Assembly: GCA_035533435.1 (NCBI GenBank)
Contig: DATLTX010000058.1
Coordinates: 27 to 64,026 of the forward strand
Length of the DNA stretch: 64,000 nt
Direction of reading: 5' to 3'
Source: Candidatus Binataceae bacterium
GTDB taxonomy: Bacteria > Desulfobacterota > Binatia > Binatales > Binataceae
The notes beneath the pieces are model-generated. The model had not been told where the DNA came from. It worked only from the letters and a program-made list of their open reading frames with translations, and made no database searches. This document shows positions 16,235-22,778 of this stretch, piece by piece. The stretch's first letter is position 1. Each line of letters opens with the position of its first letter. Both the position numbers and the translations under genes were made by a program.

Positions 16235-17092
16235 TTAGCGGCGCTTCATCGCCTCGAATCCGCCGATCAGCTCCAGCACCTCAGTGGTGACCGCCTCCTG
16301 ACGCATCCGGCGCATGGTCCGATTGAGCTCCTTGGCTTTGTTGTCGATATTTTCGTGCGCCGCGTCCATCGTGCGAAACCGCGCCGCGTTCTCGCTTGCA
16401 AACGAATCCATGGCTCCCGCCTCGAGCATCGCGAACATATATTCCGCGGCGAGTTCGTCGAACAGGCGACGCGGGCTCAAGTTCACAATTGGCGGTAATC
16501 CGGGATGATTCGCTTCGACGGCCGGCGCTTCCAGGGGAAGTAGTTTCAGGCGATTGAGACTGGCGCGCTGCCCAGTTGCTTCGCGGGTGAAGATCATCTC
16601 GACGCTGGTCAACGCCTGCGCCATAAACCTGCGATACAACTCGGCGGCGACCTTGCGCGCAACCGCGGTGACCCCGCCGCTATGCGTCGCCATCGAAAGA
16701 GTGAGAGCCGGGCGCAGCCCGCGCTCAGAGGCTCGCTGGGCGCCGCGTGTGCCGACGAAGATGAGTTGAAGGTTCCGCTGGCTCTTTGCGGCGTCGGCGG
16801 CGGCGCGGATCAGCGGATCATTGAAGGACCCGCAAAATCCGTGTTCGGAGCAGAAAACCACAAGCCCGGGCCGGCGCGGATTGCCGACGGCCGAGCCGTC
16901 ACCGTCTTCGGGAAGCAGCGTGGCAGCTTCGGCCAGCGCGCGGCGAATTATTTCGGCGTAGTCGCGAATCGCATCTAGCGAGCGCTGGCTTTGCTGCATT
17001 TGCACCGCGGCGATAGCGCGCAGCGCCGCAACAATCTCCAGCAGCTCATTGAGCGAACCTATTTGCTCGGTGATTTCCTGTGCTCGCGCCAT
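16235..17092 (-). CDS. atpG: ATP synthase gamma subunit (N-ATPase operon)
   Basis: Gamma-subunit N- and C-terminal coiled-coil helices. Last gene of the atpDCQRBEFAG cluster. Confidence 0.9.
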   Translation of the reverse strand: MARAQEITEQIGSLNELLEIVAALRAIAAVQMQQSQRSLDAIRDYAEIIRRALAEAATLLPEDGDGSAVGNPRRPGLVVFCSEHGFCGSFNDPLIRAAADAAKSQRNLQLIFVGTRGAQRASERGLRPALTLSMATHSGGVTAVARKVAAELYRRFMAQALTSVEMIFTREATGQRASLNRLKLLPLEAPAVEANHPGLPPIVNLSPRRLFDELAAEYMFAMLEAGAMDSFASENAARFRTMDAAHENIDNKAKELNRTMRRMRQEAVTTEVLELIGGFEAMKRR

Positions 17093-17101
17093 CGAGGTCA
17101 G

Positions 17102-18655
17102 CTACCCCGCCGCAGCGCCGGCGGCGCCGCTGACCTGCGCGACCAATGCCGCCATCGAACGTTTCAACGCCGCCCGCGTCGCCCCGTCGAGTTCACCGGT
17201 CGATCTGATTCGTTCGATCGCCGCGGCGGCGTTTTCGCCGAGCCACTGGGCAAGCGAGTTGCGCAGCCCCGCCACCTTCTCCAGGGGCAACGAATCGAGC
17301 ATTCCCTCGCCGAGCGCGAGCAGCAGCGCCACCTGATGCGGCATCGCAAGCCCGGAACACTGCGGTTGGGTGAGCACGGCCCGGATCCGGCGGCCATGTT
17401 CGATTATGCGGTGCGTGCGGTCGTCCACCATCCCGCCGAAGCGGGTAAAGATTTCCAGTTCGAGGAACTGGGTGTATTCGAGGCGCAAATTTTCCGCCAG
17501 CTCACGCATCGCGGGCGCCTGGGTTTTGCCGCCAACGCGAGAGACGCTCTTGCCAACATTGATGGCGGGTTTTTGGCCCTCCTGGAACAGGCGCGGCTCC
17601 AGGACAATCTGGCCGTCGGTAATCGAAATGAGGTTGGTCGGAATGTAAGCCGAGATATTGCCCTCCTCGGTCGCGGCAATCGGCAGCGCCGTCAGCGAGC
17701 CGCCGCCGCGCTCATGGCTCAACCTGGCCGCGCGTTCGAGCAGGCGGGAATGAATGTAGAAGATATCGCCCGGATAGGCTTCACGCCCCGGCGGATTCCT
17801 CAGCAGCAATGAAAGCTGGCGGTAGATGACCGCATGGCTGGTCAGGTCGTCGATGACCAGGAGCGCGTCGCCGCCGCGTTCGCTGAAATACTCCGCCATC
17901 GTGCAGGCCGCGTACGGCGCGAGCCATTGCAGTCCGGGAGGATCATCCGAAGCGGCGACGACAAAGATGCATCGCTCGGGCGCGCCGAAACGGCGCACGG
18001 TTTCAATCACCTGGGTGACGGAAGAGGTCTTCTGCCCGACTGCGCAGTACACGCAGATCACGCCGGAATCGCGCTGGTTGACGATTGTATCGACGGCGAT
18101 CGCGGTCTTGCCGGTTTCGCGGTCGCCGATTATCAACTCGCGCTGACCCCGCCCCAACGCCAGCATCGAATCGATCGCGACCAGGCCGGTCTGGAGCGCC
18201 TGGCTGACGAGATCGCGCTCGATGATGCCAGGGGCGGGCCGTTCGACGGGTTCGAAACCTTTTTGGGCTAGTTCCGCGCCGCCATCGAGCGGTATTCCAA
18301 GTGGGTTGACCACGCGCCCGAGGAGCATCTCGCCAACTGGCACGCTGGCCACCAAACCCGTTCCATGCACGCGATTGCCGGCGGCAATTTCTTCCGCCGG
18401 ACCCAGCATCGCACAACCGATCAGTCCCGGATCGAGCGCGAGCACCATCGCGGTCACGGGTTCGCCACCGCCTTTGCGCTCGAATAGCAGCAGTTCATTG
18501 AGCCGCGCTCGTGGCAGGCCGGAGACGGTCGCGACGTCGTCGCCGATACTCTCGACGCGGCCGAGCATATCGAGCGCGGGTCCTGGCTTAAGCCGCTCGA
18601 CGCGCCGCACGGCTTCATCGAGCTTTAGCGCCAGGTTCTCAGCCAGGGTGCTCAT
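17102..18655 (-). CDS. atpA: ATP synthase alpha subunit
   Basis: Walker A GDRETGKTAIAV and an alpha-type catalytic core. 517 aa. Confidence 0.95.
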   Translation of the reverse strand: MSTLAENLALKLDEAVRRVERLKPGPALDMLGRVESIGDDVATVSGLPRARLNELLLFERKGGGEPVTAMVLALDPGLIGCAMLGPAEEIAAGNRVHGTGLVASVPVGEMLLGRVVNPLGIPLDGGAELAQKGFEPVERPAPGIIERDLVSQALQTGLVAIDSMLALGRGQRELIIGDRETGKTAIAVDTIVNQRDSGVICVYCAVGQKTSSVTQVIETVRRFGAPERCIFVVAASDDPPGLQWLAPYAACTMAEYFSERGGDALLVIDDLTSHAVIYRQLSLLLRNPPGREAYPGDIFYIHSRLLERAARLSHERGGGSLTALPIAATEEGNISAYIPTNLISITDGQIVLEPRLFQEGQKPAINVGKSVSRVGGKTQAPAMRELAENLRLEYTQFLELEIFTRFGGMVDDRTHRIIEHGRRIRAVLTQPQCSGLAMPHQVALLLALGEGMLDSLPLEKVAGLRNSLAQWLGENAAAAIERIRSTGELDGATRAALKRSMAALVAQVSGAAGAAAG

Positions 18656-20913: not shown

Positions 20914-21338
20914 GGTTTGCGCACCAGCGGATCCCACGGTTGTTCACCTGGACGCAGGTAGCGGTAGAGCTGCTGAATTACGGCTTGCTGAAGACCCAAC
21001 GCTCCGAGCCGCGCGGCCTGTTCCGTCTCTGCGTTTTTCGTCATCTGCGCAAGAACGACCTCGCGCAAAATTTTGAGGCCTTCGCCCAGAACCGCTTCCC
21101 GCGTAGCGACCTCGACCGATTTGCCCTCGCGCACGCGAAGAACGCCGCCACGAACCGCCGCATAGTGTTCCAGGCCGGAGCGGTCGCGCCAGACGAGCAC
21201 ACTGATCGCCAGCGCCGTCAGAAAATCCGCATGTCCCGGCTGTATTCCGAAAGCTCCAGTCGAATCTTCGGCGCGGACGTGGCGCACGTTGTCCGCGCTG
21301 ACGACGATCGCGGTGGGAGTGGTGATGACCAGTTTCAT
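20910..21338 (-). CDS. atpC: ATP synthase epsilon subunit
   Basis: N-terminal beta-sandwich (GAFGIQPGHADFLTAL) and a C-terminal helical hairpin. Confidence 0.8.
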   Translation of the reverse strand: MKLVITTPTAIVVSADNVRHVRAEDSTGAFGIQPGHADFLTALAISVLVWRDRSGLEHYAAVRGGVLRVREGKSVEVATREAVLGEGLKILREVVLAQMTKNAETEQAARLGALGLQQAVIQQLYRYLRPGEQPWDPLVRKP

Positions 21339-21347
21339 CGGCGCGCG

Positions 21348-22778
21348 TCACCCGTTAGCTTTGCTCGACTTGGCTTCCTTGGCGCGTGCGTCCTCGAGCG
21401 CGCCAATCATGTAGAAAGAACTCTCGGCCCACTTGTCTCCCTCACCGCCAAGAATTGCGCGGCATCCCGCAAGGGTCAGCGCGATTGGGACTGATTTCCC
21501 CGCGATACCGGTAAACTCTTCTGTGACCAGAAAAGGCTGGGTCAGGAAGCGTTGCAGGCGGCGCGCGCGTTCGACGGTGAGCCGATCTTCGGCGCTTAAC
21601 TCTTCGACTCCGAGCAGCGAGATGATTTCCTGCAGCTCGCGATATCGCGCGATCGTCCGCCGGACTTCTTCGGCGATGGCGTAATGCTCTTCGCCTACGA
21701 TGCGCGGGTCGAGCAGCAAGGAGGCTGAGTTGAGCGGATCGATGGCGGGATAGAGTCCTTCGGCGGCCATATCGCGCGAGAGCACAATCGACGAATCGAG
21801 ATGGCGAAATGTTTCCACGACGGCGGGATCGGTAAAGTCATCCGCCGGCACGTAAACCGCCTGAATAGCGGTCACCGCGGCGCCTGCCACCGAGGCAATT
21901 CGTTCCTGTAAGTCCGAGATCTCAGTCGCCAGAGTAGGCTGATACCCGACACGCGACGGCAGCCGCCCGAGCATCCCCGATACCTCGGCGCCCGCCTGCA
22001 CGAAGCGGAAAACATTGTCCATCAGCAGCAGCACATTGCGATGCATCGTGTCGCGAAAATACTCGGCGACGGTCAGCGCCGTCATTGCGACGCGCCAGCG
22101 CGCCCCCGGCGGCTCGTTCATCTGGCCAAAGACCAGCGCGGTGCGGGAGAGAACGCCCGACTTGCGCAACTCGCCCAGCAGTTCATGACCCTCGCGCGAG
22201 CGTTCGCCGATTCCGGCAAAAACTGAAATGCCGGAGTACTTCTCGACCGTGGTCCGGATCAACTCCGTCACCAGAACAGTCTTGCCCACGCCGGCTCCGC
22301 CAAACATCCCGGCCTTGCCGCCCTTGGCCAGGGGCGCCAGCAGATCGATTACCTTGATTCCGGTCTGGAAGACTTCGCGGGCGGAGTCCTGACGGCTGAA
22401 GCTCGGGGCGACGCGATGAATCGGCCATCGCGGAACCTCGGACGCGAAGTTTCCTAGTCCATCAATCGGCTCGCCAACCGCGTTGATCAGGCGGCCGAGT
22501 ACCGCGTCGCCGACCGGCACGCTAATTGGACCTCCGGTCTTGCTGACCGCGCATCCGCGCCTGAGCCCCGCCGTGTTTTGCATCGCGACCGCGCGCACCG
22601 TGCGCGGATCGAGATGCTCCTCTACCTCGACGATCAAAGGATAGGCGCCATCCCAGCCGACGAGCAGGGCCTCGGTCAGGGCCGGCAGCGCCCCATCGCG
22701 AAATTCGATATCGACCACCGATCCTCGAACCCGAACCACGAGTCCCGTCGGCAACGCAGGCGGGCCCGGCGCCGGCAC
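21348..22778 (-). CDS. atpD: ATP synthase beta subunit
   Basis: Walker [10 protein letters not shown] and a DELSEED-like region. The ORF-track ATG at 22955 would overlap the upstream gene by 124 nt, so a GTG start near 22778 (or 22799) is proposed. Confidence 0.85.

Follow-up and report, generated by a model that had tools for sequence, protein, structure and literature searches.

The 64,000-nucleotide stretch of DNA analysed here (the window), from an uncultured soil bacterium of the Candidatus Binataceae, contains nine consecutive open reading frames (ORFs) on the minus strand, at positions 16235-22778, which encode, in transcription order, the subunits beta, epsilon, AtpQ, AtpR, a, c, b, alpha, and gamma:

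21348..22778, minus strand: atpD, N-type beta, 476 aa from the GTG at 22778 (PF00006/PF02874/PF22919)
20910..21338, minus strand: atpC, epsilon, 142 aa (PF02823)
20605..20913, minus strand: atpQ, small membrane protein, 102 aa (PF09527, ATPase_gene1)
20324..20608, minus strand: atpR, hallmark N-ATPase membrane protein, 94 aa (PF12966, AtpR)
19659..20327, minus strand: atpB, a subunit, 222 aa (PF00119)
19397..19642, minus strand: atpE, c subunit, 81 aa (PF00137)
18639..19397, minus strand: atpF, long b subunit, 252 aa (PF00430 at aa 7-138)
17102..18655, minus strand: atpA, N-type alpha, 517 aa (NF009884)
16235..17092, minus strand: atpG, gamma, 285 aa (PF00231, 172 bits)

The first-pass annotation had described this contiguous order, atpDCQRBEFAG, and it is borne out by family matches for each of the subunits. 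The gene junctions range from -17 to +16 nt, with overlaps at five of the eight, which fits the translational coupling that had also been proposed, and the absence of atpH was confirmed, given that no separate delta/OSCP gene was found within the nine-gene cluster. The same order is kept in all 80 of the related genome loci fetched, and the dN/dS values of 0.06-0.26 across the nine genes (versus two relatives) indicate purifying selection, so that this is a real, conserved operon, rather than a chance pattern of ORFs.

The metagenome gene call starts atpD at 22718, which would drop a conserved N-terminal strand of beta. As this strand aligns with E. coli TGKIVQVIGAVVDVEF, the start must lie upstream, and the GTG at 22778, the boundary given originally, is preferable. 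The GTG at 22799 is an alternative start (483 aa), and is the one called in two related loci, L097 and L099. In the case of AtpQ, the start is most likely the ATG at 20913, in an ORF that is open up to 20937.

The locus is almost certainly an N-type ATPase operon, with AtpQ and AtpR, and without atpH. This identity is based on the gene order, the Pfam matches of AtpR and AtpQ, the arginines of AtpR, the two glutamates of the c subunit, the fusion of b with delta, and a phylogenetic placement outside the F-type. The operon is a new member of an already known family, the N-ATPases having been described in 2010, and it encodes a complete N1No rotary ATPase, which is predicted from its sequence to be functional. 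The two small membrane proteins named in the first-pass annotation match their Pfam models above threshold, with AtpQ reaching 56.1 bits (cutoff 26.6) and AtpR 41.6 bits (cutoff 26), but fall short of the strict cutoffs of the corresponding TIGR models (45.2 bits against 46.7 in TIGR02230 for AtpQ, and TIGR03165 for AtpR). Of the seven NCBIfam “alternate F1F0” models, only the one for epsilon reaches its strict cutoff (TIGR03166, 106.4 bits, cutoff 100.1), with the other six falling short, and epsilon also matches NF009981 (168.3 bits, cutoff 160). The alpha subunit scores 699 bits on NF009884 (cutoff 554), and higher on the alternate model, TIGR03324 (613 bits), than on the canonical one, TIGR00962 (572 bits).

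The catalytic residues are intact. The P-loops are present in both alpha (GDRETGKT) and beta, which also contains the motif EELSAED, and the essential arginine of the a subunit is R163, in RLFGN. AtpR has three hydrophobic segments, with R49 in the second and R79 in the third, and both arginines are also found in the AtpR of Burkholderia, Cereibacter, PCC 7002, and Acaryochloris, and in related loci. According to a proposal in the literature, these intramembrane arginines face the two glutamates of the c subunit. The two small genes are under constraint, with dN/dS values of 0.14-0.22 in atpQ and 0.22-0.26 in atpR (two relatives).

The b subunit, at 252 aa versus 156-170 aa in E. coli, Listeria, and Bacillus, is indeed about 90 aa longer than usual, and the delta-like C-terminal extension suspected initially was recovered. 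Residues 178-239 have a weak OSCP match (21.3 bits, cutoff 22.3), while an HMM of the C-termini of N-type b subunits matches the delta subunits of E. coli (97-176, 36 bits) and B. thuringiensis (30 bits). The long b is, on this sequence similarity, a b subunit plus the delta C-terminal domain, predicted to serve as the stator. The operon has no counterpart of the delta N-terminal domain.

The c subunit has a two-carboxylate ion site, E26 / E59-T60-M61 / Y64, and its alignment with the Spirulina c15 ring places a Glu where the F-type rings have a Gln. It is 72-75% identical to the N-type c subunits of Burkholderia and Cereibacter (72% in B. pyrrocinia), with identical site residues, versus 48% to the cyanobacterial E-S-T type, and the E/ETM/Y pattern is common to 73 of 82 related c subunits. 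The same residues, Glu / Glu-Thr-Met / Tyr, were named for the c17 ring of B. pseudomallei, which is biochemically H+-specific, with Na+ giving no specific protection (Schulz et al. 2017, PMC5376962). Since the site is identical to that of this ring, the coupling ion is likely to be H+, rather than Na+, and the description of the enzyme as a proposed Na+/H+ exporter should be narrowed to H+. The motif of TM1 is SxSxAxAxG in the window versus AxGxAxAxG in Burkholderia, and the c-ring is probably large and alanine-rich, by analogy with the B. pseudomallei c17 enzyme.

In the phylogeny, alpha and beta are both separated from the canonical F-type clade (99/100 bootstrap) and cluster with the N-ATPases of Burkholderia and Cereibacter, in agreement with the N-type assignment; the alpha of the window groups with the Binataceae (99/100). 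In the same NJ tree, the overall monophyly of the N-types has a bootstrap of 23 in alpha and 61 in beta, and the cyanobacterial N-types do not group strongly with the clade of the window. The region had also been considered accessory, which is not supported by its composition or by mobile elements. It shows no signs of recent horizontal transfer, with a flat GC content along the window, no tRNAs in the window, and no transposase or integrase among its annotated ORFs, but the context of the operon does differ between Binataceae.

The genes upstream of the operon are arranged as follows:

22832..25345, minus strand: glgP, DUF3417-type alpha-glucan phosphorylase (PF11897 + PF00343 + PF28476), 53 nt upstream of atpD
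25369..26541, minus strand: ackA, acetate kinase (PF00871), 23 nt from glgP
26570..28969, minus strand: xfp, phosphoketolase, first of the co-directional cluster (PF09364/PF03894/PF09363), 28 nt from ackA
29100..29115, minus strand: sigma-54-type -24/-12 element, CGGCAC-N5-TTGCT, 131 nt upstream of the xfp ATG, a candidate promoter
29335..29817, plus strand: CBS-pair protein, 160 aa, divergent from xfp (PF00571)

The spacing from xfp to ackA, glgP, and atpD (28, 23, and 53 nt) suggests that glgP is probably co-transcribed with atpD, and the sigma-54-type element is a candidate promoter of the whole xfp-ackA-glgP-atp cluster. Sites of this type, with up to one mismatch, occur nine times in the window versus 1.69 expected (none of 100 shuffles reaches nine), and head xfp and USP/CBS genes, while no sigma-54 site was found upstream of atpD in the related operons. 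The complete xfp-ackA-glgP-atpDCQRBEFAG unit is also found in L097 (94% alpha identity, with other downstream genes) and L099 (83%). By contrast, neither L098 (85% alpha identity) nor any of the 80 GTDB loci has xfp-ackA linked to the operon, which limits this arrangement to a narrow sub-clade of the Binataceae. The glgP gene also directly adjoins atpD in L097, L099, and L158, is near the N-type operon in L010, L021, L080, L083, L101, and L113, and is next to or near it in L079, a series that includes divergent lineages (L158, L113, L101, L083, and L079). The glgP-ackA-xfp cassette is common by itself, being present in 16-17 of the 42 loci with enough flank.

Genes of the stress-response type are also found in the vicinity, and the window contains four CBS genes, two USP domains, and one P-type ATPase. 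The CBS protein at 29335..29817 is 62% identical, over its full length, to the CBS proteins of L008 and L021, whose genes lie 88-89 nt upstream of atpD, and is a probable ortholog, judging by this similarity, of the CBS genes located directly upstream of atpD in other Binataceae. A divergent CBS gene lies upstream of atpD in B. pyrrocinia as well. Among the related operons, CBS-pair/USP genes lie within 1.5 kb in 12 of 80 cases, often less than 100 nt upstream on the same strand, and P-type ATPase genes occur near 12 loci and Hsp20 near four, all of these counts being uncorrected for shared ancestry among the Binataceae.

The linkage with xfp-ackA-glgP and the recurrent stress genes (CBS, USP, and P-type ATPase) suggest an ATP-driven proton pump fed by the fermentation of glycogen under energy or oxygen limitation. 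The encoded enzyme consists of an F1-like alpha3beta3-gamma-epsilon head, a membrane motor formed by a and the c-ring, a b-delta stator, and AtpQ and AtpR. In this lineage, xfp, ackA, glgP, and atpDCQRBEFAG would be transcribed together from the sigma-54-type promoter; the redox-neutral conversion of stored glycogen to acetate would yield ATP, which the N-ATPase would spend mainly as a proton pump, sustaining the membrane potential and the pH gradient when respiration fails through oxygen or energy limitation. The adjacent nucleotide-sensing CBS/USP proteins may be co-regulated partners. The joint reading, that is, a functional, H+-coupled N1No pump, transcribed with xfp-ackA-glgP and fed by glycogen breakdown, is favoured on balance, while the physiological role of a pump powered by glycogen fermentation is proposed only tentatively.

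A high ion-to-ATP ratio, such as a large c-ring gives, favours ATP synthesis thermodynamically at low pmf, so that the enzyme may run in either direction. It may be mainly an ATP synthase suited to low pmf, adding to the ATP derived from phosphoketolase and acetate kinase under energy limitation, a rather unlikely alternative, which is compatible with the alanine/serine-rich TM1 motif, resembling that of the c17 ring, and with the intact catalytic residues. A position behind ATP-generating enzymes is better suited to a consumer of ATP, however, and according to Dibrova et al., the deletion of the N-ATPase of M. acetivorans left ATP synthesis unaffected, and members of the family are invariably accompanied by a primary synthase. 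Schulz et al. (PMC5376962) propose a role in acid stress for the closest characterised enzyme, that of Burkholderia in phagosomes, and the relatives of the window from peat and acidic soils (including SPRUCE and peatland MAGs), together with the restriction of the xfp-ackA linkage to one sub-clade, would be consistent with an ATP-driven proton pump for pH homeostasis, in which the adjacency of xfp-ackA-glgP is incidental. This is not very probable, given that three lineages retain the fused unit despite differing downstream genes, the proximity of glgP to the N-ATPase recurs across unrelated lineages, and the neighbours are genes of the energy/starvation type (CBS, USP), rather than acid-resistance genes.

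The original proposal for the family, a Na+-exporting enzyme for salt tolerance, is unlikely in the present case. Dibrova et al. considered that the TM1 Glu of the two-Glu pattern could complete the Na+ site even without the Thr, and the cyanobacterial N-ATPase has been reported to be Na+-dependent, but the window has E-T-M in place of E-S-T, exactly as in the B. pseudomallei ring that lacks specific protection by Na+, its closest relatives are MAGs from soil, peat, and freshwater, and the annotated neighbours of the operon include no Na+-related genes. It is highly improbable, in turn, that this is the only ATP synthase of the organism, a rearranged housekeeping F-type. While beta does score marginally better on the canonical atpD model, TIGR01039, than on the alternate beta model (639.5 versus 626.7 bits), the operon includes AtpR and AtpQ but not the delta N-terminal domain, its alpha and beta branch outside the F clade, and its context varies between Binataceae. 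In addition, an F-type ATP synthase, with N and F not being separated, and an aerobic respiratory chain are reported for every Binatota genome (PMC8262859), and there is no report of an organism whose sole ATPase is an N-ATPase (Dibrova et al.).

Compared with the known systems, the canonical F1Fo (atpIBEFHAGDC, as in E. coli) has homologous alpha, beta, gamma, epsilon, a, c, and b subunits, and all its catalytic and proton-path residues are present in those of the window, which differs in its gene order, the lack of a separate delta and of AtpI, the presence of AtpQ and AtpR, the longer b, the two-carboxylate c, and the placement of alpha and beta. The window and the surroundings of the related N-type operons resemble, in gene content only, sets of genes for low oxygen or dormancy, such as the mycobacterial DosR regulon. 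The Burkholderia cenocepacia lxa locus is another such set, and contains no N-ATPase as described (PMC3721108). The kinds of genes in common are universal stress proteins, CBS-only proteins, Hsp20, a P-type cation ATPase, acetate kinase, and cytochrome b. In contrast with both sets, the candidate control in the window is sigma-54 with an enhancer-binding protein, rather than of the DosR/FNR type.

The plasmid-borne cyanobacterial N-ATPases (Picosynechococcus PCC 7002 pAQ7 and Acaryochloris pREB4; Na+-type, Dibrova et al. 2010) share the atpDCQRBEFAG order, AtpQ and AtpR, the absence of atpH, the long b, and the Glu in TM1 of c, but their c subunits contain the complete Na+ motif, E-S-T-x-x-Y, and in Acaryochloris a cation:proton antiporter separates atpQ from atpR. 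The atpR-less, H+-type variant of the Nitrospiraceae (PMC12342949) resembles the window in starting with beta, in having AtpQ and a long b, and in its predicted coupling to H+. In L158, a metagenomic representative of this variant, the operon likewise follows directly after a DUF3417 glucan phosphorylase. L158 lacks atpR and has M / E-S-L / Y, whereas both atpR and the TM1 Glu are retained in the window. The Burkholderia N-type ATPase is similar in its nine-gene order, the ion-site residues of c, the two AtpR arginines, a b of about 250 aa fused to delta, and the divergent CBS-domain gene of B. pyrrocinia. The window comes from another phylum (Binatia), with alpha and beta 59-67% identical, has a different TM1 motif, and joins xfp-ackA-glgP to the operon, an arrangement not seen in the Burkholderia locus fetched. 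This position, directly behind genes that convert glycogen to ATP, is the one unusual feature of the operon, and hints at the role of a poorly understood enzyme.

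Nine successive open reading frames (ORFs), each assigned to a family by searches with Pfam, TIGR, and NF profiles, occupy positions 16235-22778 of the minus strand.

Genes of the ATPase operon at 16235-22778, with their profile matches
First gene, minus strand: beta subunit; PF00006, TIGR01039 (639 bits)
Second gene, minus strand: epsilon subunit; PF02823, NF009981 (168 bits, cutoff 160)
Third gene, minus strand: AtpQ; PF09527 (56.1 bits, cutoff 26.6)
Fourth gene, minus strand: AtpR; PF12966 (41.6 bits, cutoff 26)
Fifth gene, minus strand: a subunit; PF00119
Sixth gene, minus strand: c subunit; PF00137
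Seventh gene, minus strand: b subunit; PF00430
Eighth gene, minus strand: alpha subunit; NF009884 (699 bits, cutoff 554)
Ninth gene, minus strand: gamma subunit; PF00231

The gene order proposed in the first-pass annotation, atpD-C-Q-R-B-E-F-A-G, is borne out by the order of the ORFs, their family matches, and their junctions, which range from -17 to +16 nt, with overlaps at five of the eight, and the same beta-first order is kept in 80 related genome loci. The claimed absence of atpH also stands, given that the ORF and profile searches found no delta/OSCP-family ORF in the nine-gene cluster. There is no PF03899 (AtpI) match in the operon either, and AtpQ matches PF09527 instead. The operons of Escherichia coli, Listeria, and Bacillus that were checked have the canonical order atpIBEFHAGDC, from which the window differs both in its order and in its lack of atpH and AtpI, and the gene order and the missing separate delta (atpH) and AtpI speak against a canonical F1Fo operon. 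The functional motifs are all intact, including the P-loop, GERSREG, and EELSAED motifs of the beta subunit, the P-loop of the alpha subunit, and the arginine of the a subunit, and the dN/dS values lie between 0.06 and 0.26 across all nine genes, atpQ and atpR included, in the comparison with two related loci (L097 and L099).

The upstream boundary, which had been placed at 22778, is upheld. The gene calls of the metagenome contigs L001-L006 start atpD at GTG 22718, with a GAGGA only 3 nt before it, a start that would remove the N-terminal beta-barrel strand of the beta subunit, which is conserved in all the reference betas, and the calls of L097 and L099 give a longer beta of 483 aa, starting at GTG 22799. 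Because the 16 residues encoded upstream of 22718 align with this first beta strand, the start of atpD is either GTG 22778 or GTG 22799.

The identification of the two small membrane proteins as AtpQ and AtpR is confirmed by Pfam models matched above their cutoffs (PF09527 and PF12966). On the TIGR models, AtpQ reaches 45.2 bits with TIGR02230, just under the cutoff of 46.7, and AtpR reaches 37.9 bits with TIGR03165, under the cutoff of 55.5. The AtpR protein has three hydrophobic segments, with R49 in the second and R79 in the third, and the equivalents of both these arginines are kept in the AtpR of Burkholderia, Cereibacter, PCC 7002, and Acaryochloris, as well as in the related loci in which AtpR is detectable by tblastn (49/80, at a relaxed threshold).

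The unusually long b subunit with a delta-like C-terminus, which had also been reported, is equally well founded. This protein has 252 aa in the window, close to the N-type median of 251 (range 234-263, 77 loci), compared with 156-170 aa in the F-type, and a profile of the C-terminal ~110 residues of the N-type b matches residues 97-176 of the E. coli delta with 36 bits, the B. thuringiensis delta with 30 bits, and the Listeria delta with 18 bits. Weak PF00213 and NF004402 matches are found at aa 178-246 of the window b, and the N-type b has no counterpart of the N-terminal domain of delta. A divergent N-type operon (L113) encodes a b subunit of 354 aa (1956-3020), in which a low-complexity tail of ~100 aa, rich in Lys, Glu, Pro, and Ala, extends past the delta-like domain.

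The criteria for membership of the N-ATPase class were drawn from Dibrova, Galperin & Mulkidjanian (2010). In simple paralogue-rooted neighbor-joining trees with few F-type taxa, the window sequence stands outside the clade of F-type sequences (E. coli, Listeria, Bacillus, and Fusobacterium), at 99/100 for alpha and beta alike, which bears out the separation that had been expected of these subunits, and the window groups with the Binataceae, again at 99/100 for both. It falls together with the N-type sequences of Burkholderia pyrrocinia and Cereibacter, with bootstrap values of 55 (alpha) and 75 (beta), and support for a clade shared with the cyanobacterial N-type references is weak, at 23 (alpha) and 61 (beta). 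Seven NCBIfam models describe an "alternate F1F0 ATPase" (TIGR03305, 03166, 03306, 03322, 03321, 03324, and 03323), and six of the seven subunits score higher on these models than on the canonical TIGR models, with the beta being reversed (626.7 vs. 639.5 bits). Only the epsilon exceeds its alternate-model cutoff (106.4 bits vs. 100.1), with the other six scoring strongly, under the cutoff. The operon is very unlikely to be the organism's sole, rearranged F-ATPase, a reading on which the beta score bears on one side, and AtpQ, AtpR, and the exclusion from the F-type clade on the other. According to Dibrova et al. (2010), every N-ATPase accompanies, as a second copy, a canonical F- or A-type ATP synthase of the same genome, and the Binatota genomes are all stated to encode an F-type ATP synthase, a general statement made without atpH or copy-number data (PMC8262859). 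The assignment of the window operon to the N-ATPases is secure.

Six metagenome contigs, from samples of ENA and JGI, encode an identical alpha protein. The nearest species-representative genomes are Candidatus Binataceae/Binatus metagenome-assembled genomes, with alpha identities of up to 78%, and the closer database proteins (83-87%) are also named "Candidatus Binataceae bacterium" at NCBI. The PGAP pipeline names the relatives' proteins plain "F0F1 ATP synthase subunit ...". In Burkholderia, Methylocystis, Methylovirgula, and several Azospirillum plasmids, the long b of the N-type is annotated by the NCBI pipeline as "F0F1 ATP synthase subunit delta", with L092 (6199-6951) among the annotations concerned. 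The pipeline calls the AtpR "ATP synthase subunit I", and the AtpQ "AtpZ/AtpI family protein". Given these names, N-ATPase operons are easily overlooked in standard annotation.

The proposal that the operon lies in an accessory region finds no backing in its composition or in mobile elements. The GC content is flat over the whole window, there are no tRNAs in the window, and no transposase or integrase among its annotated ORFs, so nothing points to a recent island. The context of the operon differs between the Binataceae loci, in keeping with the mobility and rearrangement that have been described in the N-ATPase family (Dibrova et al., 2010).

The c subunit has two glutamates (E26 and E59), as expected of an N-ATPase (Dibrova et al., 2010). 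The Na+ motif is not kept: the ion site is E26 / E59-T60-M61 / Y64, that is, E-T-M-x-x-Y, and the full Na+ ligand set E-S-T-x-x-Y is absent from the window c, this set being typical of "most" N-ATPases, not all (Dibrova et al., 2010). The c17 ring of the B. pseudomallei enzyme, which is accepted as an N-ATPase and was shown to be specific for H+, shows the same E-T-M departure, with an ion site formed by Glu30, Glu61, Thr62, Met63, and Tyr66 (Schulz et al., PMC5376962), a comparison made through the residues named by these authors and the B. pyrrocinia homologue. This departure concerns ion specificity rather than membership of the N-ATPases. The window c is 72-75% identical to the N-type c of Burkholderia and Cereibacter, compared with 48% for the E-S-T type of the cyanobacteria, and the E/ETM/Y site is found in 73 of the 82 related c subunits, with E-S-T in none. 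The less likely rival view that the operon serves for the export of Na+ has the paired glutamates in its favor, and the E-T-M site against it, and the coupling ion is, on these residues, likely to be H+. The packing motif of the first transmembrane helix is SxSxAxAxG in the window, compared with AxGxAxAxG in Burkholderia, and suggests a large c-ring, the size of which is not readable from the sequence.

Three genes precede atpD on the minus strand, with gaps of 28, 23, and 53 nt along xfp, ackA, glgP, and atpD.

26570-28969, minus strand: phosphoketolase (xfp)
25369-26541, minus strand: acetate kinase (ackA)
22832-25345, minus strand: DUF3417-type glucan phosphorylase (glgP)

The whole xfp-ackA-glgP-atpDCQRBEFAG unit is also present in L097 (alpha 94% identical, with other downstream genes) and L099 (alpha 83%; NCBI GCA_027339975.1). 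It is missing from a third relative, L098 (alpha 85%), and neither xfp nor ackA was found near any of the 80 nearest N-operons of the genome collection. A second scan, anchored on the glucan phosphorylase in metagenome loci, recovered glgP-ackA-xfp as a common cassette (16-17 of the 42 loci with enough flank), in an order that differs from the xfp-ackA-glgP of the window lineage. The cassette lies on a single strand in L104, L106, L108, L126, L130, L137, L140, L147, L152, L154, L164, L169, and others, with a phosphorylase 61-66% identical to that of the window. Beta-first ATPase operons adjoin or lie near a DUF3417 glgP in three further loci, the Binataceae-like L101 (alpha 74% identical), and the divergent lineages L158 and L113 (alpha 47-50%). 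In L113, both atpQ and atpR are present, and the operon is 3.4 kb from glgP. In L158 (4943-13600), the operon is atpD-C-Q-B-E-F-A-G, without atpR, ~280 nt downstream of the glucan phosphorylase, with a c site of M / E-S-L / Y and a b subunit of 249 aa, and it is similar to an H+-type variant without atpR that has been reported from the Nitrospiraceae (PMC12342949).

Downstream of the operon are an amidohydrolase, a GST, and then a second glycogen phosphorylase, a glycosyltransferase, and a debranching enzyme, a GDE-GT-GlgP-amidohydrolase layout kept in L099. This second glycogen set around the operon includes a GDE debranching enzyme, a glycosyltransferase of the GT4/GT1 type, and a glycogen phosphorylase of the classical kind, PF00343 (5879-8158(-), 8245-9339(-), and 11657-14104(+)), together with a more distant nucleotidyl transferase (38878-39807(-)).

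A putative nucleotide sensor gene lies on the other side of xfp.

29335-29817, plus strand: CBS-pair gene, divergent from xfp

The encoded protein shares 62% identity along its entire length with the CBS proteins encoded before atpD in two related loci (L008 and L021), and in B. pyrrocinia, a CBS gene is found upstream of atpD, in divergent orientation. Similar genes, for CBS, USP, or USP-CBS proteins, are located directly before atpD in other members of the Binataceae, in loci of the Acetobacteraceae, and in B. pyrrocinia, and CBS-pair or USP genes occur within 1.5 kb of the operon in 12 of the 80 loci, often 50-100 nt before atpD on the same strand. Other recurrent neighbors are genes for P-type cation ATPases (12 related loci), Hsp20 (4), and PRPP-synthetase-like proteins (4). 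The window itself contains two USP-CBS fusions, two stand-alone CBS-pair genes, a P-type ATPase, a PRPP-synthetase-like gene, FtsH, cytochrome b, and a sigma-54 activator. The USP/CBS genes are found at ~40042-40845(+), 49908-50732(-), 29335-29817(+), and ~54073-54471(+), and a block of plus-strand genes (55068-57668, 58062-59054, 59055-60458, and 60235-61974) encodes the P-type cation ATPase, the PRPP-synthetase-like protein, a beta-CASP metallo-hydrolase, and a thymidine-phosphorylase-like ORF. An ORF of 46 aa with a desulforedoxin-type domain (29826-29966(+); PF06397, precomputed annotation) sits between the CBS gene and a Zn/Mn-type ABC transporter.

When no more than one mismatch is allowed, the sigma-54-type motif TGGCAC-N5-TTGCW has nine sites in the window, compared with an expected 1.69 +/- 1.30, and none of 100 shuffles reached nine. 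The enrichment is confined to this threshold, given that with up to two mismatches, the count (29 vs. 24.6 expected) is not above chance.

625-640, 29100-29115, 49725-49740, 50788-50803, and 53685-53700, minus strand: sigma-54-type sites (at most one mismatch)
31593-31608, 39998-40013, 41037-41052, and 54031-54046, plus strand: sigma-54-type sites (at most one mismatch)
61993-63498, minus strand: sigma-54 enhancer-binding protein, with an N-terminal 190 aa that has no Pfam match

All nine sites lie within ~150 nt before a candidate start on the correct strand, and the genes behind them include xfp, two USP-CBS genes, a CBS gene, an HlyD/ABC exporter, and DUF1329, as well as two further ORFs, one without a Pfam match (41024-42661), and one with a weak, sub-threshold DUF455 match (48597-49676). 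Together with the encoded activator, this looks like a local sigma-54 regulon. No such sites were found upstream of atpD in 63 related operons, or upstream of glgP in 74 metagenome loci, so this control would be local to the window rather than a trait of the N-ATPase family. A scan for sigma-70 promoters and intrinsic terminators over 13900-29800 found no site in the key intergenic gaps, and is uninformative on the transcript boundaries, as its counts are at chance level.

The linkage to these genes, conserved in the sub-clade, the looser proximity elsewhere, the kinds of neighboring gene, and the shared promoter motif are the grounds for proposing a pump fed by glycogen. The glucan phosphorylase, phosphoketolase, and acetate kinase would degrade stored glycogen in a redox-neutral route to ATP, which would power the N-ATPase as a high-ratio proton pump, and this pumping would, in turn, keep the membrane energized in an otherwise obligately respiring bacterium, with the CBS/USP nucleotide sensors as co-regulated partners. 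The linkage to the ATP route, the CBS/USP and P-type ATPase neighbors in several phyla, and the shared sigma-54-type motif together suggest that fermentative ATP may hold the proton gradient when respiration stops. Two less likely rivals have to be weighed against this scenario, the synthesis of ATP at a low proton-motive force, and acid-stress pumping with incidental neighbors. The loci without xfp and ackA would suit the latter, and the gene unit shared with L097 and L099 would favor the pump. The role as a pump, with its link to glycogen fermentation, is a tentative reading of the gene neighborhood, which may well prove wrong. It is somewhat more doubtful that, in this Binataceae lineage, the N-ATPase would act as the output end of a survival module that is controlled by sigma-54 and serves when energy or oxygen is limiting.

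Within the incomplete coverage of the literature search, there was no published link of N-ATPases to phosphoketolase, acetate kinase, glycogen genes, CBS/USP proteins, hypoxia, or dormancy, and nothing relevant on the ATPases of the Binatia. The lxa locus of Burkholderia contains an acetate kinase and USPs, and no N-ATPase is reported there (PMC3721108). In B. thailandensis, the chromosome-2 operon was lower at 37 °C, as were genes for nitrate reductase and USP, a pattern that is only loosely suggestive.

N-ATPases were described in 2010 and are a routine finding in genome papers, so that all the operon contributes by itself is one more lineage, the Binatia. The roles proposed for these enzymes include the export of Na+ and tolerance of acid, and the neighborhood described here provides a concrete, testable idea. 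If it is true that the pump runs on fermentative ATP, this would explain both the constant second-copy status of the N-ATPase and its large, "cheap" c-ring, and, if the survival module is also real, the general role of the N-ATPases would be the upkeep of the proton-motive force in dormancy, replacing salt or acid tolerance.
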